This document shows, one piece after another, positions 2,237-17,018 of a stretch of 64,000 bases of DNA. Within the stretch, counting starts at the first letter, position 1; every line of letters begins with the position of its first letter. Source of the DNA: Candidatus Heimdallarchaeum aukensis (lineage in GTDB: Archaea; Asgardarchaeota; Heimdallarchaeia; Heimdallarchaeales; Heimdallarchaeaceae); contig CP084166.1 of NCBI GenBank assembly GCA_021513695.1, forward strand, positions 2,880,001-2,944,000. The letters run 5' to 3'. The notes under the pieces were generated by a model. It was given only the letters and a program-made list of their open reading frames with translations, did no database searches and was not told where the DNA came from. The position numbers were made by a program, and so were the translations under genes.

Positions 2237-5200
2237 TCACGCCATGCGTATTATCCCCTCACGAGGAGAATAGAGTTCACCATTTTCTCTTAATTGTCTA
2301 ATTACTTTGTCTACAAAATCTCCGTCTATTGAGTACTCTTTTTCAGCAATTTGTTTAACTTTGTTAATAGAAACCTCATTGGAAAAACCTTTCTTCGTTT
2401 CTTCTTTTATAATATCGATAACTTTTTGGAGATTACTTCGTTCACTTCTTGATGTTCCTTGTAAAAAGTAATCTACATCTACTTTTCCAGTTACTGGGTC
2501 TCGTCCTACTTGTTGTAGGGATTCTGTAAGAAGACGAATAGCTGCTTCAGCATGATCAATTGTTACATCTTCTTTTAGAGCCATTCTTGCTTGTGCTTCT
2601 GAAAGACGAATAATGGCTTCTAAATACCTGGGTGTAATAGCAATAGATTTTTTGTCTGATTGTTTTCTGAGATCAAGATAGAATTTTTCTATTCTACGCA
2701 TAGCTTCATCAGTTAATGAAGGTTCAATGTTTTGTTTAGCATAACTAATATATTTTCTTAAAAGATCCATAGAAATAGGAGGTTCTGCAGTAGCTGATAT
2801 TTGTCCTCTTCTTAATTCTAAAATATGTCTAGCCATATTAAGGTCGCTGTCTGGTTCTGGAACATCACGCATAATGTAGATAAGATCAAAACGAGAAATA
2901 ATTGTAGCGGGTAGATTAATATTGTCAACTGGGTGAGAGTTTTCCTCATATCTACCAAATTTAGGGTTAGCAGCAGCAATAATAGCTGTTCTTGCATTAA
3001 GCTGAGCAACGATACCCGCCTTGGCTATGCTAACGGTATTGTGAAGTATTAGTCCCCCTGCAATGAAGGTTTTTGTTGGAATTACAGTAACATCATAAAC
3101 CCATTTTGCTTTAAATTTTCCTTTGTTCTCTATTATTTCAACGTTTTTAACTTTAAGCCATTTGAAATTTAGCATACTTTCAATATAGCTTATTTGATTG
3201 TTGACATAATTAATTTCTTCTTTTAGAAATTGCTTGATCTGAGAAAGAAGCGAAGTCCTAACTTGTACGGTGTAGCCCCCATTCTCACAGTAATCTATTG
3301 TTGAACGGGTACTTTTAATTAATCTTGCAATTCCTGCTTGTGAATAACCAACGAATTCTCTCAGTTCACGAACATTATTTATTTCATAGATTTTTTGGTT
3401 AATGATGTTAATTCTTCTTTTTAATTTCTCTAATTCTCGTTCTACAACAAATTTTGCAATACTATTGTTAAATTTAATATTACCATAGAATCTTCCATTA
3501 TATACCATTCCTAGTCTTTTCATGCAATCAATTAAGCTGATTGCTGTTTCGACTGGTAAAACATCTCTTTTTTTGTGGTTTGCTTTAGTTCTGCTAATGA
3601 ATTTTTTTATTTTTGGATTGTCAGAATGGTGTGGAATAATTTTCCTTACAAAATTATCTAGACTTTCTGCTAAAATATAAACTTTATATCTATATTTTGT
3701 TTTTTTACTTTTGGGCGTTGTATACTTACTTTTATGTATTATAGTAAAGATATCTAGACTTAAGAGTAAATCTTGGTAGTCAACTGCAAGCAATTTTGAA
3801 GAAGTTGAAAAACTAACCGCTTCACTTTCTATTGATCCGTCACCATCAAAAGCAGCAGATAAGAAGGCAATCCGACAATCGTTATCTGCTTCAAATATTT
3901 TTTTAGGTATGCGCTTATAAATACTCTTTTTCATTAACTCTGGGAAATTTTTTGCCATAAAATTATACAATGATTTAGATATGATGCGTAAGACACGTCT
4001 TTTTTCAACGTTATCAATTGGTTCAATACCAAAAGTTGACTTAATAATTTCCTTCATTTCTGATACTATTTTTGGATCATAATTACTTAATCCCACTTCC
4101 ATTGATGAACCACTATAAGAATAACCTTCTGAAACGAAAAAGCCTAAAAACTTGGCTAAAGAGGTATTCATTTTTGTTGGTAGTCGAATTTTTTTATTTC
4201 CTAGTGAGATATCAGTATCTAAAGTGCTATTTGTATTAAAAACTAGATTTTTTACAGCTGGTATAAAGGATCCTTTTTTAACATTTTCAGCAGCTATTTC
4301 TCTTATGATCCCTTTGTGAAAAACGAAGATTGGGTGTTCTGGTGTTACAACAATATCTCTACCATTAGAATATGTGATTTTAATAAAATAGTCTGGTGCT
4401 GTATGACGACTGACACGGTCAATAATTATCGGAAAAGTGTCTTTGAAATCAGTTGTTTGAATGTTGATATTTAAATCTGAAATAGGTAAAATCTCACAAT
4501 TAATACCGTTAACTTTGCGTTCCGGATACTTATCAAATAAAGAATCTACTAGTGAACCAATTTGTGTTACAGTTCCATCAGATAATCTAATTTCAAACAT
4601 AGGATGAAAAGAATGCTGTTCCATAGCTTCATGTATAGCTGAACGATCATGTGCAGTCATTTTGTCGAATTCATCAATTGTGGCTAAACCACGATCTGCC
4701 AGTACTAAAGCTCCCGCTTCCAAAGAAAACTCTCCTGTGTCAGGGTCTCTAACTACTGCTGCAGTGTTGTGAGTAATAAACCCATTAACTATAAAATTGT
4801 GCGTTTGTGGGACAGTTAAGTCATAAACATATTCATCTTCTTTTTCGATAAATTCAACTTTAGTTACTTCATCCCAAAATATTTCGCTTGAAAGGAGCGA
4901 TTCTATAAGTTTAATATCTTGCTTCAACTCAGTGTTTGTTTTACAACTTGATTTAATTTCGCTGATGATACTCTCAATTTCTTTTTTATTGCTATTCTTA
5001 AAATCCAAAATTATGTTGTTATTAAAACTAAGGGTTGTGTTATTACAAAGATTGATTTTTTCTATTAATTCACCTAATAGTTGTTCTATGCAAGAAGCTA
5101 CTTTTCCATCTACTAAACTATCCTTTAAGTCTTTAGAATTTCTTTCTTTAGGGTTAATTGTTCCAACTAAATCTCCTTTAATCAAATCTTTAGCTTTTAT

Positions 5201-6637
5201 CCATACTATTCCTCTCTCTGAAAGAGTGAGAAGAGGAGTCTGTTGAGTTAATTTAATTGTCCTACCACTTTTAGATGAAATCTTTACTAATAAACGAGGA
5301 CTTTTGATTTTCCAGAATTTTTCAATTTTAGCAGAATTGATTTTTAAGTTAGAAGAATTTAAAATAGAATTATAATTTGAATCTGTTTCTAGATTATTTT
5401 CAACAAACCAGAAACCTTCTTGGTATTCTTGTGGTTTGTTGTTTTTAAACTCTCTTTCTACAATGTTTACTATTTTTTCAACCTTATTTTCAAAATATAT
5501 TTCACTATCTGCTGCAACACATAGTCCTGCTGCTGAACTTGCTCGCCCTGAAGTAAAAATACCTCGGGGAGCTAATCTGTTTGCAAAATGAAGAAGTTGG
5601 CTTTTTCCTACACCAGGATCACCAACTAATAATAGATTTGATTCTCCTCTCTGTTTCATTCCATCCGGTGTAACTCTGGAAACTCCTCCAAAGAGTACAG
5701 TAGCAATTGCCTCTTTGATGATTTCATGACCGTAGATAGAGGGAGCGATTGAACGAATGATTTTGTTATGAATGTTAATGTCTCTGGAAAGTTCTAGAAT
5801 CTCTTTTTCGGTGTCAGGATCAATTTCTAATTCTTCGAATTCCTTCTGTCTAGATGCAGCAAAATTGACCTCTAACCAAGGATCAAAAGTAGCCAACTGT
5901 TTCTTTTTTTGTTGTAAAGACGGTTTCATTCTAAGAATACCGTTAACAATTGCTCTATCTCCTGCTCTAACAACATCTACTAAATCTCCAACTAAGTATG
6001 CAGGAAGAGAGCGAGGAATTTGACCAGGAGGAAGGTTTTCTGGCTTTTCTTGAATAGTAATTGTCTGGATATCAGTGTAAGATGATTCTTCTGGAAGGAG
6101 CTTGAAAGGACCTTTTTTTCCACAATCGGGGTTACTACACTGGACAGGTTCAGAATAATAACCTAAATCTTGATCCCAGCTCATTATCTCCCCACAACGG
6201 GTACACTGGAAAACTCCTTGAATAAGAAGAGGTTTGACAACAGATTGACGAAGAACAATACCTTCAACCGAAATAAATTTCCCTAAATGAGTAGCTCGAA
6301 CATGACGTAGATCAACTATGTCCGGGATGTTTGCAAATCTTACTTTGAACCATTGTCTATTTTCTTGTGCATAACTCAAATCTTCTATAGAAATGACTTC
6401 AAAAAGTGCTTCATCTGCATCTTGAAACATAGTTTCAGGTTCGTCTCTAATCATCTGTGCAAGTCCAGGGTCATAACGCAAAATGTCATCATAATTGACA
6501 TAGAGAGAAGTTAAGCCCTCTAAAACCATCTTCTGAATTTGTTCAGTGTAAACATATCTACCATTTTCGTCCATGTAACCTTGAAAAAACTCTTTGAATC
6601 GTTCTGAATACCCTTTTGCAGTTGTATCAATATGCAT
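2237..6637 (-). CDS. mcm: Replicative helicase MCM, 1466 aa, interrupted by two inteins. The extein is about 689 aa.
   Basis: N-terminal Zn-finger region CTRCGEIMSWDQ...CSNPDCG. Walker A is GDPGVGKSQLL. The motifs SSAAGL / TAAVVRDPDTGE...EAGALVLADRG...IDEFDKM (Walker B) ... SIAKAGI...NARTAIIAAANP are split by two insertions. A C-terminal winged-helix tail is present. Confidence 0.9.
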   Translation of the reverse strand: MHIDTTAKGYSERFKEFFQGYMDENGRYVYTEQIQKMVLEGLTSLYVNYDDILRYDPGLAQMIRDEPETMFQDADEALFEVISIEDLSYAQENRQWFKVRFANIPDIVDLRHVRATHLGKFISVEGIVLRQSVVKPLLIQGVFQCTRCGEIMSWDQDLGYYSEPVQCSNPDCGKKGPFKLLPEESSYTDIQTITIQEKPENLPPGQIPRSLPAYLVGDLVDVVRAGDRAIVNGILRMKPSLQQKKKQLATFDPWLEVNFAASRQKEFEELEIDPDTEKEILELSRDINIHNKIIRSIAPSIYGHEIIKEAIATVLFGGVSRVTPDGMKQRGESNLLLVGDPGVGKSQLLHFANRLAPRGIFTSGRASSAAGLCVAADSEIYFENKVEKIVNIVEREFKNNKPQEYQEGFWFVENNLETDSNYNSILNSSNLKINSAKIEKFWKIKSPRLLVKISSKSGRTIKLTQQTPLLTLSERGIVWIKAKDLIKGDLVGTINPKERNSKDLKDSLVDGKVASCIEQLLGELIEKINLCNNTTLSFNNNIILDFKNSNKKEIESIISEIKSSCKTNTELKQDIKLIESLLSSEIFWDEVTKVEFIEKEDEYVYDLTVPQTHNFIVNGFITHNTAAVVRDPDTGEFSLEAGALVLADRGLATIDEFDKMTAHDRSAIHEAMEQHSFHPMFEIRLSDGTVTQIGSLVDSLFDKYPERKVNGINCEILPISDLNINIQTTDFKDTFPIIIDRVSRHTAPDYFIKITYSNGRDIVVTPEHPIFVFHKGIIREIAAENVKKGSFIPAVKNLVFNTNSTLDTDISLGNKKIRLPTKMNTSLAKFLGFFVSEGYSYSGSSMEVGLSNYDPKIVSEMKEIIKSTFGIEPIDNVEKRRVLRIISKSLYNFMAKNFPELMKKSIYKRIPKKIFEADNDCRIAFLSAAFDGDGSIESEAVSFSTSSKLLAVDYQDLLLSLDIFTIIHKSKYTTPKSKKTKYRYKVYILAESLDNFVRKIIPHHSDNPKIKKFISRTKANHKKRDVLPVETAISLIDCMKRLGMVYNGRFYGNIKFNNSIAKFVVERELEKLKRRINIINQKIYEINNVRELREFVGYSQAGIARLIKSTRSTIDYCENGGYTVQVRTSLLSQIKQFLKEEINYVNNQISYIESMLNFKWLKVKNVEIIENKGKFKAKWVYDVTVIPTKTFIAGGLILHNTVSIAKAGIVAQLNARTAIIAAANPKFGRYEENSHPVDNINLPATIISRFDLIYIMRDVPEPDSDLNMARHILELRRGQISATAEPPISMDLLRKYISYAKQNIEPSLTDEAMRRIEKFYLDLRKQSDKKSIAITPRYLEAIIRLSEAQARMALKEDVTIDHAEAAIRLLTESLQQVGRDPVTGKVDVDYFLQGTSRSERSNLQKVIDIIKEETKKGFSNEVSINKVKQIAEKEYSIDGDFVDKVIRQLRENGELYSPREGIIRMA
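3038..4612 (-). mobile_element. Intein 2 in MCM (aa 676-1200, 525 aa) with a LAGLIDADG homing endonuclease domain, inserted in the EAMEQ/TVSIAKAG motif.
   Basis: Begins SFHPMFEIRLSDGT after extein EAMEQH and ends GGLILHN followed by TVSIAKAGI. Two LAGLIDADG-type motifs are present, LAKFLGFFVSEGY and IAFLSAAFDGDGSI. Confidence 0.75.
4766..5521 (-). mobile_element. Intein 1 in MCM (aa 373-624, 252 aa), inserted between SSAAGL and TAAVV in the P-loop region.
   Basis: Begins with Cys immediately after the extein sequence GRASSAAGL and ends ...NGFITHN followed by Thr (+1). No convincing LAGLIDADG motifs are seen, so this is a mini-intein or carries a degenerate endonuclease. Confidence 0.75.
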
Positions 6638-10171: not shown

Positions 10172-10474
10172 ATGAAAGAATGCACGCTTTATTGCCGATC
10201 TTTTCGCTGCACTAACAGAGCATTAAAAGTTGAACGCCAAGGAAATGGTTCAAAAAAATTCATCTGCAAGATGGAAGGAGACGAATGCATTGGCTATTTT
10301 TGTAAATATGCTTCTTGTGCAGAAAAAATGTTAGCTGATGATGGTCGTTGTTTACGACCAGATAAGAAAGTTGCTTCCAAACCTAAAAGACCTATTAAAA
10401 TTGACAAATACGATGTCTTTGATACTAGTTCTTTAGATGATAGACTGTACAAAAAATTGAGGAGAAAAATGTAA
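10172..10474 (+). CDS. Small Cys-rich (putative Zn-binding) protein with a basic C-terminal tail. Function unknown.
   Basis: 100 aa with Cys clusters CTLYCRSFRC, CKMEGDEC and CKYASC, then a KPKRPIK...KKLRRKM tail. It sits directly upstream of the KaiC-like/GTPase pair on the same strand. Confidence 0.45.
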   Translation: MKECTLYCRSFRCTNRALKVERQGNGSKKFICKMEGDECIGYFCKYASCAEKMLADDGRCLRPDKKVASKPKRPIKIDKYDVFDTSSLDDRLYKKLRRKM

Positions 10475-10529
10475 TTATCTTCTACCTAACTTTTAAATAC
10501 CAAGTCGAATAAGTATTTTATCGAATGAG

Positions 10530-11315
10530 TTGAGTTATATGTTTCCCAATGCAGTTCAACCACAAAAAAATCTTCTACCTTTTGGTATTCCAAGTTTAGA
10601 TGAAATTCTAGGAGGAGGTATTCCAACAGGTTCTATAGTCTTAATAGAAGATGAAATAGGTGCAGAGGCTAATCCATTTATTTTACAGTTTTTAGCTGAA
10701 GGATTAAAAGCAGGTCAATATGGATATATTATGGCAACAGAACACCCATATGAATACTTTTCTGAAATGTTATCAGGAATAGGCGTTAATACAGACATGC
10801 TTAAAGCTACAGGAAGATTGAAATATATTGATGCTTTCTCCAATCCCTTTGGATATACTGACCTTCGTTCTGAACATGATCTTGCAGTAAGAAATATTAG
10901 TCAACCACGTGAATTAAATGAAATTATAAGAAGAGCTTTTCTTCATGTGAGAGATCAAAATGTAATCAAAAGAGGAATTGTAAGCTCGCTATCATCTATT
11001 ATTTATGCTACTGATGAATCAAAGAAGACGATTTTTTCTTTCTTACAAAATAGACTCGCAAGCAATAAACTTGATGGCTCAGTAACTCTATTCTCTTTGC
11101 ATTATGATGCACATCCAAGGTTACTAGTTAAAGCTATAGAACACTTGAGTGACGTAACAATCAGAGTGAAAAAAGGTTTCACAAAAGAAGAACGACCTCT
11201 AAACGAAGTACAAGTAATCAATATTAAAGGTAAACCCGAACTTGCCGGGGAAAGTGTACAATTTGAGTTCATTTCTGGAAAAATTATCCCATATTATGAA
11301 GAAAACCTATTCTAG
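10530..11315 (+). CDS. KaiC/RadB-like RecA-superfamily protein with degenerate Walker A and B, a predicted pseudo-ATPase.
   Basis: The N-terminus GIPSLDEILGGGIPTGSIVLIEDEIGAEANPFIL matches the KaiC/RadB signature xSLDxxLGGGxxxGxxxLIxGxxGxGKT, but GxGKT is replaced by IGAEAN. Walker B hhhhD is replaced by IVSSLSS. Confidence 0.6.
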   Translation: MSYMFPNAVQPQKNLLPFGIPSLDEILGGGIPTGSIVLIEDEIGAEANPFILQFLAEGLKAGQYGYIMATEHPYEYFSEMLSGIGVNTDMLKATGRLKYIDAFSNPFGYTDLRSEHDLAVRNISQPRELNEIIRRAFLHVRDQNVIKRGIVSSLSSIIYATDESKKTIFSFLQNRLASNKLDGSVTLFSLHYDAHPRLLVKAIEHLSDVTIRVKKGFTKEERPLNEVQVINIKGKPELAGESVQFEFISGKIIPYYEENLF

Positions 11316-11937
11316 TTTTGATCAAAGTATTTTTTTTTCATTTATTAACACCATTAGATTTATTAATTTAGATTGTTTGTTTTATTTGATAAGTTTGTCA
11401 TTCGATTATTTGTTCAAGACAATAATTGTTGGAGACCCAAATGTTGGAAAAACTTCAATTACACTCCGATTTTCAACTGGAACTTTTAGAGAAAGATATC
11501 TTTTTACTATAGGCGTAGAATTTAGTGTTAAAGATATTGAAGTCGATGGAAACAAGGTAAAAATTCAAGCTTGGGACACTGGAGGACACGATAAATATTC
11601 CTATATTCGTCCGTTGTATTATAAGGGGTCATATGGAACATTAATTGTTTATGACATTACCAACAAAGCATCATTTGAAAATTTGAATAAATGGTTTAAA
11701 GAAGTATATGATAACTGTGAAACAACAATTCCTGCTATTCTAGTTGGAAATAAAAACGATTTGGAAGAACAGAGAGAAGTAACAAGAGAAGAAGCTTTAA
11801 AATACGCAGAAGAAATGAGTAAAGAATATAATTTGGAAAATATTCCTTATTTTGAAACTTCAGCAAAAACAGGTGAAAACGTCGACGATATCTATTTTGA
11901 ACTAACAAGATTAATGATTAAAAAATCAAACATGTGA
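11296..11937 (+). CDS. Ras-superfamily small GTPase (Rab/Ran-like).
   Basis: G1 GDPNVGKT, switch I threonine (FTIGVEF), G3 WDTGGH, G4 NKND, G5 ETSAK. The ATG at 11296 overlaps the upstream gene by 20 nt and gives a 38-aa hydrophobic leader. In-frame TTG codons at 11395 or 11410 would give a canonical roughly 10-aa N-terminus and leave a TATA-like tttattaa about 25 nt upstream. The true start is uncertain. Confidence 0.8.
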   Translation: MKKTYSSFDQSIFFSFINTIRFINLDCLFYLISLSFDYLFKTIIVGDPNVGKTSITLRFSTGTFRERYLFTIGVEFSVKDIEVDGNKVKIQAWDTGGHDKYSYIRPLYYKGSYGTLIVYDITNKASFENLNKWFKEVYDNCETTIPAILVGNKNDLEEQREVTREEALKYAEEMSKEYNLENIPYFETSAKTGENVDDIYFELTRLMIKKSNM

Positions 11938-12983: not shown

Positions 12984-14171
12984 ATGATGGAACCAATAGT
13001 TAAAGGAATGACAGGAGATGAAGCTGTCGCTTGGGCAGCAAAACAAATTAATCCTGATGTTGTAGCAGCTTACCCAATTACCCCTCAAACAATAATCGTT
13101 GAAAGATTCTCCGATTATGTAAATGATGGGCTTGTTGATACCTCTTTTGTCCCAGTAGAGTCAGAACACTCTGCTATGTCTGCTTGTGTAGGAGCTTCAG
13201 CAACTGGAGCAAGAGTATTCACAGCAACAGCTTCAGCAGGTTTAGCCTTGATGTATGAAATTCTTTATGTTGCATCAGGAATGAGATTACCTATTGTTCT
13301 TGCAGTAGCAAATAGAGCATTTTCAGCTCCTATAAACATTCACGCAGAATGTACAGATCAATTAGTAACAAGAGATGCATCTTGGGTTTCTCTATTTGGA
13401 GAATCAGCACAAGAAGCCTATGATGAAACAATAATGTCTTTCAAGATTGCAGAAAATCCAAAGGTTCTACTTCCAACAATGTTTGGTGTAGAAGGATTTA
13501 TTGTTACACACGCTTTGGAAAGAGTTGACACTCTCCCAGATAAAGCGATAAAAGACTTTTTACCAGAAAAAAGAGAAGTTGAATATGCCTTTACTCCAGA
13601 TGAAATCAGAACATTTGGGTCTTTAGTTTTACAAGACTATTATATGGAAATAAAAAGGCAACAAGAAGATGCAATGCAAGAAGCTTATAAAGTAACTAAA
13701 GAAGTAATGAGCGAATATTCTGAATTAACAGGAAGAAATTATGAAATTATTGAGAAGTACAAACTTGAAGACGCAGATTATGCTTTTGTCTCATATGGAG
13801 CAACAGCAGGTAATGCCAAAGCTGTAGTAGATAATCTGAGAGAAAAAGGAGAAAAAGTCGGTAGTCTTAAAATAAGAATGTATAGACCATTTCCAGCACC
13901 AGACATATATGATGCATTGAAAGGAATAAAAGCAGTATCAATTTTAGATAGATCAGCTACTTTTGGCTCTCCAGGAACAATTGTTCAATCAGATCTTGCA
14001 ACTGCTCTATTCGGAAAGAAAGATGTACCAACACTACATGGATACATAAACGGTCTTGGAGGAAGAGTACTAACCATTCCAGAAATTGAGCAAATTTACA
14101 TGAAAACAAAGGCATACCACGACGAAGGAAAAGCACTAACTACAGAATGGTTTGGATATAGGAAAAGGTGA
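12984..14171 (+). CDS. porA: 2-oxoacid:ferredoxin oxidoreductase, alpha subunit.
   Basis: MMEPIVKGMTGDEAVAWAAKQINPDVVAAYPITPQT is a canonical PorA/VorA N-terminus. The ORF track begins at GTG 12972, which overlaps the porD stop. ATG 12984 sits 9 nt after that stop behind an aggtga RBS-like element. Confidence 0.85.
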   Translation: MMEPIVKGMTGDEAVAWAAKQINPDVVAAYPITPQTIIVERFSDYVNDGLVDTSFVPVESEHSAMSACVGASATGARVFTATASAGLALMYEILYVASGMRLPIVLAVANRAFSAPINIHAECTDQLVTRDASWVSLFGESAQEAYDETIMSFKIAENPKVLLPTMFGVEGFIVTHALERVDTLPDKAIKDFLPEKREVEYAFTPDEIRTFGSLVLQDYYMEIKRQQEDAMQEAYKVTKEVMSEYSELTGRNYEIIEKYKLEDADYAFVSYGATAGNAKAVVDNLREKGEKVGSLKIRMYRPFPAPDIYDALKGIKAVSILDRSATFGSPGTIVQSDLATALFGKKDVPTLHGYINGLGGRVLTIPEIEQIYMKTKAYHDEGKALTTEWFGYRKR

Positions 14172-14173
14172 TT

Positions 14174-15142
14174 ATGATGATAGAATTACCAAGAATTAAA
14201 TTAAAAGAAATAGCAAAGCAAGACGATGTTCTTGTCTCTGGACATAGATTATGTGCAGGATGCGGAGCTGGAACAATGGCCAGACAAGTAACTCTAGCAG
14301 CTAAAGCTCTAGGAGAACCTTTCATGATTGTAAATGCTACAGGTTGTTTAGAAGTAGCAACTACTATCTATCCATTCAGCGCATGGAACGCTCCTTGGTT
14401 ACATAACGCTTTTGAAAACGCATCTGCAACAGCTTCAGGAGCTCTCGCTGCCATGGAAGCTATGCAGAGAAAAGGACTGATGAAAGAAGAAAAAGTGAAC
14501 ATGATTATTTTCGGCGGAGATGGTGGAACTTATGATATTGGACTTCAATCTCTTTCTGGAGCAATTGAGAGAGGACATGATTTCTTGTATGTATGTTATA
14601 ACAATGGAGCATACATGAATACTGGAATACAAAGAAGTGGTGGAACTCCTCAATGTGCAATAACCACAACAAGCCCAGCTGGAACGGTTATCCCAGGAAA
14701 AATAAAATGGCAAAAACCTCTCGCTGAAATTATGGCTGCACATGATATACCAACCTTTACTGCTAGTCCATTCTATCATAGAGATTTAATGCAAAAAGTT
14801 CAAGCAGGACTAAAACATGATGGGCCAGCATTCTTGCTAGTTGATTCTCCATGCAATTTAGGACAAAGATACGCACCTAACATCTCTCTTAAAACAACAG
14901 AATTAGCAGTAAAAAGTTGCTTCTTCCCATTATATTCAACTTACAAAGATGAATGGGTATTAACTAGCGAATCATTAAAGATTGCAAAGAACCCTGAAAA
15001 GAAAGTTCCAGTTGAAGAATATCTCAAACTACAAGGAAGATTTAAACATCTTTTCAAACCTGAATGGAAAGGAAAGATAAAAGAGATTCAAGAACAAGTA
15101 GACGAGAGATGGGAAAGACTGCTAAAGAAAGCAGGATTCTAA
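14174..15142 (+). CDS. porB: 2-oxoacid:ferredoxin oxidoreductase, beta subunit (TPP-binding).
   Basis: CAGCG Fe-S/TPP region, then GGDGGTYDIGLQSLSGAIERGHDFLYVCYNNGAYMNTG (TPP-binding GDG...NN motif). ATG 14174 follows the aggtga element and the GTG at 14168 overlaps the porA stop. Confidence 0.85.
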   Translation: MMIELPRIKLKEIAKQDDVLVSGHRLCAGCGAGTMARQVTLAAKALGEPFMIVNATGCLEVATTIYPFSAWNAPWLHNAFENASATASGALAAMEAMQRKGLMKEEKVNMIIFGGDGGTYDIGLQSLSGAIERGHDFLYVCYNNGAYMNTGIQRSGGTPQCAITTTSPAGTVIPGKIKWQKPLAEIMAAHDIPTFTASPFYHRDLMQKVQAGLKHDGPAFLLVDSPCNLGQRYAPNISLKTTELAVKSCFFPLYSTYKDEWVLTSESLKIAKNPEKKVPVEEYLKLQGRFKHLFKPEWKGKIKEIQEQVDERWERLLKKAGF

Positions 15143-15203: not shown

Positions 15204-17018
15204 GTGGATTCTAAAAAGGAAATAGATATTAAAAAGCAATTAGGTGCCTTCTATACTCCTCAAGCAATAGTTGACTTTATGGTTTCCAGAGTTTTTGATT
15301 TTTTAGAAAAAAAGAAGAAAATTAACCTAAAATCGAAAAAGCAATTCACAGATTCTTTATTTTCTTTAAAAATCTTAGATCCTGCTGTCGGAACTGGAAG
15401 ATTCATTGAAGGAATAATAAGACACATAAACTATAATCTAAAGAAACTCGGATTTGAAACTAAAGATAAAGAAGAACTAATAACTGAATTTGTTTCTAAT
15501 AATTTATTTGGAATAGAGATTGATTTACTAGCTTTGAAAAAATGTAAAAGTAATTTGACTATAAAATATCCTTTTCTCAAAGAATCTCACTTAAAACAAC
15601 TAAAAGTAGGTAATTCTTTAGTAGAGCCAGATATATACAAAATGTTTGAAGATGAAAACTCTTCTCTCCTTTCTCCTTTTTCCTGGAAAGAAGAATTTCA
15701 CAACACCAAGTTTGATTTAATAATTGGTAACCCTCCTTATTTCAGTTTTAGAAAGTTAGGACTAGAAAAAATAGAAAATCAATTATTATACGACTATTTA
15801 AAAAAATCAAACTATTGGAAATGTTACTTTCGTTCTTCTGCAGATATCTACTTTTACTTTATTGTAAAATCTCTAAATCATCTAGAAAGAAAAGGAGTGT
15901 TATCTTTTATTATCCCAAGTTACTGGATAACTAACCATTTTGCTGATAAACTACGAGAAAAAATACTAAATTATAAGATTCTAGAAATCATAGATTTTCA
16001 AAACCAACAGGTATTTTATGATGGTGGAAAGAGGATAAATATTTCTTCCACCATCTTGAGTGTTATTAATGAAGTCCCCTCAAATTCTCTTTTTTCAGTA
16101 TATAAGTTGAAGAAAATCAGATCTTTAAATTTGAATGATTTTTTCAAAAAAGAAAACTTTGATGAGTTTAAAGTTTCTCAATCCTCTCTAACGAGAGAAA
16201 AATGGGTTTTGTCTCCAAATCAGCTTAAACTTAGCAAAATTGTAGAAAATAGCATAGACGGGAAAAAGTTATCTGAAATAGCGACAATTGCACAAGGTGT
16301 ATCTCCTGGAGTAAAAAACATATTTGTAATGACAGTAAATGAAGCTAAAAAAATGAAATTGGAAAAGGAGATCCTTTATCCTTTCATTACTAACAAATAT
16401 ATTTCAAAATGGACTTTTGCTTCTTCAAATCTTGTAACCATATTTCCGAAGAAAATAACTAATTTAGAAGAATATCCTTTTACTAAAGCTTATTTAGAAA
16501 AAAATAGAGAAATATTGATTAATGGCCCAGATAGGAAAAAACTTATTGCGAAAAATAAAATTAGGTGGTTTGATTTCAGTGTTTATAGGAATATTAATCT
16601 TTTTTTGAAGGAAAGAGAAAAAATACTTACTCCCTACAGAAGTAAAAGAGTAAGTTTCGCTTATGACAATGAAGGTCTTCTTGGTTCAACAGATATTTAT
16701 GCTATTTTTCCAAAGAGAAAAGAGCTGCTCTTTTATCTTTTAGGTATCCTAAATAGTAAAGTTTCGGAATTCTGGTTTAAAGAAGCAGGAAAGAAAAAAG
16801 GAACTGCAATTGAGTTTTTTTCAAAAGATCTTGCGAAATTCCCTATTCCCCCAATGAAAAATGAAAAAAAAATAACAGAAATTGTTAAACGAATAATACA
16901 TTGTAATATTAAAAATGAGTATAGTGATGTTGAAGAATTAGAGAAAAAATTAAATTATTTAGTTTTAGATGAGTACAATCTAGATGAGAGTTTCTTGCCT
17001 GATTTTTCTTTTTCTTAA
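15204..17018 (+). CDS. N6-adenine-specific DNA methyltransferase (gamma class, TaqI/Eco57I-like) with a long C-terminal target-recognition region. Solitary.
   Basis: FYTPQAIVDFMV motif, AdoMet motif I ILDPAVGTGRF, catalytic motif IV IIGNPPY. It is 604 aa with a GTG start. No nuclease domain or neighbouring restriction enzyme is recognisable. Confidence 0.75.
   Translation: MDSKKEIDIKKQLGAFYTPQAIVDFMVSRVFDFLEKKKKINLKSKKQFTDSLFSLKILDPAVGTGRFIEGIIRHINYNLKKLGFETKDKEELITEFVSNNLFGIEIDLLALKKCKSNLTIKYPFLKESHLKQLKVGNSLVEPDIYKMFEDENSSLLSPFSWKEEFHNTKFDLIIGNPPYFSFRKLGLEKIENQLLYDYLKKSNYWKCYFRSSADIYFYFIVKSLNHLERKGVLSFIIPSYWITNHFADKLREKILNYKILEIIDFQNQQVFYDGGKRINISSTILSVINEVPSNSLFSVYKLKKIRSLNLNDFFKKENFDEFKVSQSSLTREKWVLSPNQLKLSKIVENSIDGKKLSEIATIAQGVSPGVKNIFVMTVNEAKKMKLEKEILYPFITNKYISKWTFASSNLVTIFPKKITNLEEYPFTKAYLEKNREILINGPDRKKLIAKNKIRWFDFSVYRNINLFLKEREKILTPYRSKRVSFAYDNEGLLGSTDIYAIFPKRKELLFYLLGILNSKVSEFWFKEAGKKKGTAIEFFSKDLAKFPIPPMKNEKKITEIVKRIIHCNIKNEYSDVEELEKKLNYLVLDEYNLDESFLPDFSFS

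Follow-up and report, generated by a model that had tools for sequence, protein, structure and literature searches.

An inactivated KaiC-like protein of Asgard archaea and its small cysteine-rich gene partner at a Heimdallarchaeum locus

The closest described relatives of the protein considered here are the archaeal KaiC-like proteins PH0284 (UPF0273), SSO2452, and ArlH/FlaH (PF06745, the "RAD55 family"), which keep the GxxGxGK[ST] motif and the Walker B aspartate and bind ATP. KaiC-like proteins that have become inactivated are, to our knowledge, common in archaea, and we know of almost none with an established partner or role. Inactivated KaiC-like domains (iKaiC) are a recognized category in archaeal signaling, and iKaiC and MEDS domains, which have the KaiC/RecA fold without its catalytic residues, have been proposed to be sensor or adaptor parts of signaling networks (PMC5847659). 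Here we describe a protein of this kind, termed pKaiC, which is encoded in a 64,000-nucleotide (nt) stretch of the Candidatus Heimdallarchaeum aukensis genome (contig CP084166.1, positions 2,880,001 to 2,944,000), referred to as the window. An initial annotation had placed it in a three-gene module together with a small cysteine-rich basic protein (CYS) encoded upstream and a translationally overlapping Rab-like GTPase encoded downstream. Comparison across relatives reduces this module: the conserved unit is the two genes CYS and pKaiC.

All three open reading frames (ORFs), which lie on the + strand, are real genes. CYS occupies positions 10172 to 10474 and encodes 100 amino acids (aa). The middle ORF was called mechanically as 261 aa from TTG 10530 (10530-11315); because the orthologues start with MF, the likely start is ATG 10539, which gives a pKaiC gene of 258 aa at 10539-11315, separated from CYS by a gap of 64 nt. 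The third ORF, mechanically called as 231 aa at 11242-11937, holds the GTPase gene, for which orthologue starts indicate 180 aa from a TTG (11395-11937). The window is AT-rich (GC about 31%), and the guess that it derived from an Asgard-like genome was correct, the pKaiC protein sharing 98% identity with that encoded by the complete Candidatus Heimdallarchaeum endolithica PR6 genome (locus L012, CP084167.1). Identity as an anti-phage defense system was considered and dropped, as a PADLOC defense-system scan gave no signature, with no matches for pKaiC and CYS and only noise for the GTPase.

Over residues 17 to 222, the pKaiC protein scores 63 bits with the Pfam KaiC family (PF06745; cut-off, 26.6), which 22 of 22 members of its own family also match. 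It has the RecA-like alpha/beta core fold. The NCBIfam models for archaeal KaiC-domain proteins and for ArlH also match, at scores well below their cut-offs. Among solved structures, KaiC and Pyrococcus PH0284 come closest to it in sequence, and an AlphaFold2 model built from 16 orthologues is good (predicted local distance difference test [pLDDT], 77; predicted template modeling score [pTM], 0.77). Fold, length, and the N-terminal GIPxLDxxLGGG motif are shared with PH0284, SSO2452, and ArlH/FlaH, which provide the best matches in both sequence and structure.

What separates pKaiC from these proteins is the state of its ATPase motifs. In the alignment to PH0284, the SLDEILGGG segment is kept, whereas PGTGKT is replaced by IGAEAN (10656-10673, + strand; lysine to Ala47 and threonine to Asn48), preceded by an acidic LIEDE, and VVDSVTT is replaced by IVSSLSS (10977-10997, + strand; aspartate to Ser152). 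The catalytic glutamate pair EE has become TE (T70-E71). The Walker A signature GxxxxGK[ST] is found neither in pKaiC nor anywhere else in the family, and pKaiC has neither the Walker B aspartate nor an intact glutamate pair. The altered stretches are themselves conserved, since LIEDEIGAE(A/S)(D/N)PF and SLSS are present in 16 of 16 close orthologues; the position of the former Walker B aspartate varies freely (S, N, V, L, or I) within Heimdallarchaeaceae. Mean column identity among the close orthologues is 77%, and the rest of the protein is, judging from this alignment, under strong purifying selection. Because the motif losses are fixed across the family, we regard pKaiC as an inactivated KaiC-like protein, which most likely neither binds nor hydrolyzes nucleoside triphosphates. 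The loss of the Walker A lysine and threonine and of the Walker B aspartate, recognized in the initial annotation from the window alone, is thereby borne out by the Pfam match, the PH0284 alignment, and the structural model; the description as a pseudo-ATPase of the RecA fold extends to the family, for which a scaffold role is a reasonable suggestion.

A HMMER scan of 1.84 billion representative sequences for relatives of pKaiC returned about 20 more distant clusters, with E values that rise gradually from 1e-87 to about 1e-18. None of these clusters has GK[ST], and many retain the Walker B aspartate; this residue has been lost in the Heimdallarchaeaceae branch of the family, whereas more distant lineages keep it. 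The named sources of the distant clusters are Heimdall-, Hod-, Thor-, or Baldrarchaeia or "Promethearchaeota," and every cluster of the family with a source name is Asgard. Source databases label the proteins "RAD55 family ATPase," and weak MEDS, DUF7090, and DUF7504 matches occur in the family. Unlike the iKaiC and MEDS domains, pKaiC is a stand-alone Asgard family with no REC or HTH fusion and is paired with orphan small cysteine-rich proteins. Literature searches on Elp4, KaiC, GTPases, and Elongator in Asgard archaea yielded no description of the family, and no description of its pairing with small cysteine-rich proteins was found in the literature searched. pKaiC is an uncharacterized inactivated KaiC-like protein, of a category already known, with an orphan small partner.

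The pairing was examined at loci of relatives that carry a pKaiC orthologue (L001 to L066). Onto 40 of these loci we mapped eleven proteins of the window together with an N-terminal MCM fragment and an additional protein of L001, and further loci were screened with family hidden Markov models (HMMs) and a GTPase motif pattern. The Heimdallarchaeaceae were sampled as 26 GTDB species-level genomes, of which 22 have an upstream flank and 23 enough of a downstream flank. CYS lies directly upstream of pKaiC, in the same orientation, in all 22 genomes with an upstream flank. The pair is also kept in the rearranged contigs L004 and L005, where pKaiC is 83% identical to that of the window and where, in L004, CarS now follows pKaiC. 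Outside this family, loci L047 to L050 carry a CYS homologue with all eight cysteines (E about 1e-15 to 1e-16) upstream of a pKaiC of about 40% identity. Because the pair recurs in that lineage, the association of CYS with pKaiC is older than the Heimdallarchaeaceae.

Elsewhere among the Asgard lineages, the neighbor of pKaiC at 18 loci is another small basic protein, of a Cys/His type. Its gene lies immediately downstream or, in three loci, is convergent at a distance of a few hundred bases; examples are L038:5779-5997, L041:4774-4992, and L061:1704-1922, and the further 15 loci are L042 to L044, L051, L052, L055 to L059, and L062 to L066. The protein is usually 71 to 82 aa long (95 in L056), with the pattern C-x4-C...C-x2-H and a tail of the form HY[RK]KIKKxLKK; neither Pfam nor the PDB contains a relative. 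Often, genes for a 12-Cys Fer4_5 membrane polyferredoxin and for a transmembrane peptide of 47 to 50 aa come next. Homology of CYS to the 72-aa Cys/His protein was considered and rejected (hhalign probability, 0.15%). The two small proteins are mutually exclusive among the loci.

CYS itself is a basic protein (100 aa; isoelectric point, 9.5) with eight cysteines in the pattern C-x3-C-x4-C-x18-C-x6-C-x4-C-x4-C-x10-C. The cysteine region is followed by a variable K/P/Q-rich linker and then by a conserved basic C-terminal helix (LDDkLrKKLxRK). All eight cysteines are invariant in an alignment of 31 sequences, the eighth being replaced by tyrosine in one of 23 locus translations, and all eight are also present in the approximately 33% identical homologues P0284 and P0285 and in the L047 lineage. 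The family comprises 66 sequence clusters; those with names are assigned to Heimdallarchaeota or Heimdallarchaeaceae, apart from one labeled Thorarchaeota and one labeled "Asgard group." No Pfam domain, NCBIfam match, or PDB relative was found for CYS. An AlphaFold2 model from the 31 sequences is of low quality (pLDDT, 52) and shows a helix at residues 90 to 99. The cysteines are arranged without CxxC knuckles, and no zinc-finger family of Pfam or NCBIfam matched; the initial view of CYS as a cysteine-rich basic protein encoded upstream on the same strand stands, and its position is strictly conserved. From the cysteine pattern, CYS most likely binds metal at two sites, of the Zn(Cys)4 or the Fe-S (iron-sulfur) type, in its first 60 or so residues.

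The third gene encodes a small Ras-superfamily GTPase of the Rab-like type, as annotated from the start. It matches Pfam Ras (PF00071) at 1.5e-53, and its closest solved relatives are Rab35, Rab8A, and Ypt1 (about 1e-45). The Ras/Rab G1-to-G5 motifs are in place (G1, GDPNVGKT; G3, WDTGGHD; G4, NKND; G5, SAK). The protein ends in MIKKSNM, without the C-terminal cysteine that is prenylated in eukaryotic Rabs, and in its G1-to-G5 layout and the lack of a prenylation cysteine it agrees with what is reported for the Asgard Rab-like Thor-Rab. It differs from Asgard Rab-like GTPases in its G3 motif DTGGHD (WDTGGHD at 11569-11589), where histidine takes the place of the catalytic glutamine (DTAGQE in Ras and Rab); the histidine is conserved in the orthologues as WDTGSHD. 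There is also a likeness to DxPGH, the corresponding motif in translational GTPases.

The apparent overlap of this gene with pKaiC had been read as translational coupling, and it proves to be an artifact of ORF extension. Its source is an ATG at 11296-11298 (+ strand), which overlaps the 3' end of pKaiC by 20 nt and would add about 33 nonconserved residues ahead of TTG 11395. The orthologous GTPases are 180 to 184 aa long and start with M-(S/L)-FDYLFK, which corresponds to TTG 11395 in the window; none of them has a 50-aa N-terminal extension. Only in the window is ATG 11296 in frame with the GTPase. In the two closest relatives, L012 and L008, the spacer has a 1-nt indel that puts this ATG out of frame, the ATG frame ends within 8 to 9 codons, and a TGA closes the GTPase frame at that very spot. 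Since frame-shifting indels are tolerated there between near-identical strains, the spacer is noncoding, and the true start of the GTPase is, on these alignments, most likely TTG 11395, located 79 nt past the pKaiC stop. Conserved overlapping or abutting stop and start codons are not seen among the relatives, in which the orthologous GTPases begin 80 to 730 nt downstream. The 79-nt spacer (11316-11394, + strand) contains a T9 run at 11330-11338 and two TATA-like boxes, ATTTATTAA, within 11340-11370, about 20 nt apart and 28 to 55 nt upstream of TTG 11395. L012 and L008 retain both boxes within a spacer that otherwise varies and has the indel. The T9 run and the boxes may represent an archaeal terminator and promoter, a tentative assignment from the motifs.

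In the Heimdallarchaeaceae, the genes of this region form a collinear block of about 10 genes in the order HDAC, CarS, CYS, pKaiC, (a cytidylate-kinase-like gene), Rab, porG, porD, porA, and porB. In 23 of 23 species genomes with enough flank, no more than 1.1 kb separates pKaiC from the GTPase downstream of it, which is on the same strand in 21. This constancy speaks for the proposal that pKaiC serves as an effector, GTPase-activating protein (GAP), or guanine nucleotide exchange factor (GEF) platform for the adjacent Rab-like GTPase, with the three genes acting as one regulatory switch, and the change of the catalytic glutamine to histidine could mean that hydrolysis depends on a partner. 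However, because collinearity extends over the entire block, HDAC through porB, the adjacency of the GTPase carries no specific information. Moreover, where the block changes, it changes between pKaiC and the GTPase. In 14 of these 23 genomes, pKaiC and the GTPase are kept apart by a convergent gene on the opposite strand, which encodes a cytidylate-kinase-like P-loop protein of about 187 aa; the contig of L019, additional to these, ends inside this gene. With its 3' end the gene runs into the pKaiC stop, the overlap being 4 nt in L001, where it occupies 5777-6340 on the - strand; it is present in 14 other Heimdallarchaeaceae loci and absent from the window, and its Pfam matches are subthreshold. 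L031 and L033 have the GTPase gene in inverted orientation. The 5 kb that follow pKaiC in L004 hold neither the GTPase nor the por genes, and L005 ends at the pKaiC gene.

Beyond the Heimdallarchaeaceae, no Ras-like ORF was detected with the GTPase HMM and the G1-G3-G4 pattern in the flanks of any of 30 pKaiC-orthologue loci from other lineages (L011 and L038 to L066), flanks that reach 4 to 5 kb in the longer loci and a few hundred bases in several others, where metagenome contigs end. Pairing of pKaiC with the GTPase is limited to the Heimdallarchaeaceae, within the collinear block, and the initial annotation had itself named a lack of conservation in related genomes as a result that would speak against its module; this is largely what was found. 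Roadblock proteins are known GTPase regulators, and in favor of the switch one Roadblock/LC7 gene does adjoin a distant pKaiC: in L011 (P0040, on a 643-kb contig), it lies at 4829-5125 on the - strand, convergent and 28 nt after the pKaiC gene, and it is the sole neighbor of a GTPase-regulator type among all loci. For MK-D1, an Asgard archaeon in culture, the genes of small GTPases are reported to lie generally outside operons with those of the candidate regulators RB, longin, and TRAPPC3 (Tran et al., PMC10933270), which also speaks against a GTPase platform. With translational coupling gone, we consider the three-gene switch improbable.

We therefore give preference, with slightly better than even confidence, to a two-gene cassette in which pKaiC is a nucleotide-independent adaptor and the GTPase is independent of both. 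In this proposal, pKaiC, with the acidic stretch LIEDEIGAEAN in place of a P-loop, would act as a passive and probably oligomeric adaptor. CYS would bind metal, at two Zn(Cys)4 sites or as an Fe-S cluster, and would contact pKaiC, nucleic acid, or both through its basic C-terminal helix. The pair would then form a regulatory adaptor of the sort proposed for archaeal KaiC-like hubs, and the GTPase would be transcribed separately from its own start, behind the T9 run and the TATA-like boxes. Several points weigh against this proposal. Neither small partner was found within 4 to 5 kb of pKaiC in L011, L039, L040, and L045. Gene order is what suggests an interaction between CYS and pKaiC, and metal binding by CYS is suggested solely by its eight conserved cysteines, its structural model being poor. 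Motifs that resemble terminators and promoters arise easily in DNA of 31% GC, which makes that part of the reading weak. The unbroken presence of the GTPase close downstream of pKaiC within the Heimdallarchaeaceae also counts here, and a functional tie between the two that is specific to this lineage is possible.

Two further explanations concern the cassette itself. The name "RAD55 family ATPase" given by sequence sources, and the structural matches to SSO2452 and to RAD51 paralogues, would be in keeping with pKaiC as an ATPase-dead recombination mediator of the RadA-paralogue type, comparable to the Rad51 paralogues of the yeast Shu complex, with CYS as its DNA-binding partner. SSO2452 is a RadA paralogue of Sulfolobus, and eukaryotes have ATPase-dead Rad51 paralogues with a zinc-finger partner (Shu2/SWS1). 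The best sequence matches of pKaiC, however, are KaiC-like proteins and not RadA or Rad51; no repair or recombination genes were seen in any neighborhood, the cysteine pattern of CYS is not a SWIM motif, and both small proteins are without a Pfam or PDB family. A role in recombination is thus unlikely. The second explanation takes the cassette as a redox or metal sensor, in which an Fe-S cluster or thiol switch in CYS would be read by pKaiC and relayed to ferredoxin-linked metabolism. The eight cysteines without CxxC knuckles would suit such a function, as would the por (pyruvate:ferredoxin oxidoreductase) operon that lies downstream throughout the Heimdallarchaeaceae and, in other lineages, the 12-Cys Fer4_5 polyferredoxin and an FAD oxidoreductase beside the pair of pKaiC and its small protein. 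These neighborhood themes are weak and differ between lineages, however, and the cassette is apart from por in L004, so we hold the sensor explanation to be doubtful, about as much so as the recombination role.

A last alternative compares the cassette with Elongator. Elp4/5/6 have a RecA/KaiC-like fold with degenerate P-loops and form a ring scaffold, and their N-terminal motif and acidic P-loop remnant are similar to those of pKaiC, which is present as one paralogue per locus, compared with three in Elp4/5/6. The pKaiC family with its interchangeable small cysteine-rich partners could on this basis be an archaeal forerunner of the eukaryotic Elp4/5/6 ring, a RecA-like platform that works without nucleotide and presents RNA, tRNA, or another client. 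pKaiC matches Pfam PAXNEB (Elp4) at 6e-12, above the cut-off; PAXNEB matches were obtained for 22 of 22 family members (best, 3.4e-14), ELP6 matches for 9 of 22, and Iki1 (Elp5) matches for 3 of 22. In hhalign comparisons with human ELP4, the pKaiC profile reached a probability of 95.8 over 57 columns at 33% identity, and LIEDE...FLAEGL of pKaiC resembles LIEED...FLAEGI of ELP4. That all source-named clusters of the family are Asgard would fit an ancestral role as well. If this account were true, the acidic LIEDE/FLAEGL remnant of the P-loop shared with ELP4 would be inherited and not convergent.

Controls remove most of this specificity. Among 51 ordinary archaeal single-domain KaiC-like proteins, many with an intact GKT, 46 match PAXNEB, and a profile built from these controls is as good a match to ELP4 (probability 95.4 over 69 columns); only the weak ELP6 and Iki1 matches are enriched in the pKaiC family over the controls. 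The ELP4 match is confined to the N-terminal 55 or so residues of pKaiC, and the ELP4 query sequence was checked only by alignment to yeast Elp4 chains. The family profile found no PDB Elp4/5/6 chains at E values up to 10, and in structure comparison Elp4/5/6 are farther from pKaiC than archaeal KaiC-like proteins are. No Elp3 was encountered in the neighborhoods examined, in which no search aimed at Elp3 was made. A specific similarity to Elp4/5/6 is not supported; the likeness is generic to KaiC-like proteins, and Elongator is useful as an analogy. Descent of the Elp ring from this family is the least probable of the alternatives, and we rate it as very unlikely.

Other features of the region vary among the relatives. 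The window's porB gene (14168-15142), which encodes the thiamine pyrophosphate-binding subunit, is intein free (324 aa), as it is in H. endolithica. In L008 (10005-12071), L009 (4737-6803), and several other Heimdallarchaeaceae, porB carries a LAGLIDADG intein (688 aa); the CYS and pKaiC proteins of L008 and L009 are 95 to 97% identical to those of the window. The por operon of the window is followed at 15204-17018 by a gene for a 604-aa N6-adenine methylase of the Eco57I/MmeI type with a TaqI-like specificity domain, which is conserved at this place in several relatives. On the - strand at 2237-6637, a 1,466-aa ORF matches the MCM helicase of L008, for which two intein-splicing regions and a LAGLIDADG domain are annotated.

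Regulators of Asgard small GTPases are hard to match to their targets from genome layout, as noted for MK-D1 (PMC10933270). They are actively sought, so the removal of a false lead matters: the apparent coupling of a pseudo-KaiC to a Rab is accounted for by an ORF extension and by block synteny. What gene order does tie to the pKaiC family is a small, basic, cysteine-rich protein from either of two families unrelated to each other, which offers a concrete pair for biochemistry in the lineage closest to eukaryotes. The value of this pair lies mainly in the study of archaeal KaiC-like hubs or of Asgard cell biology.

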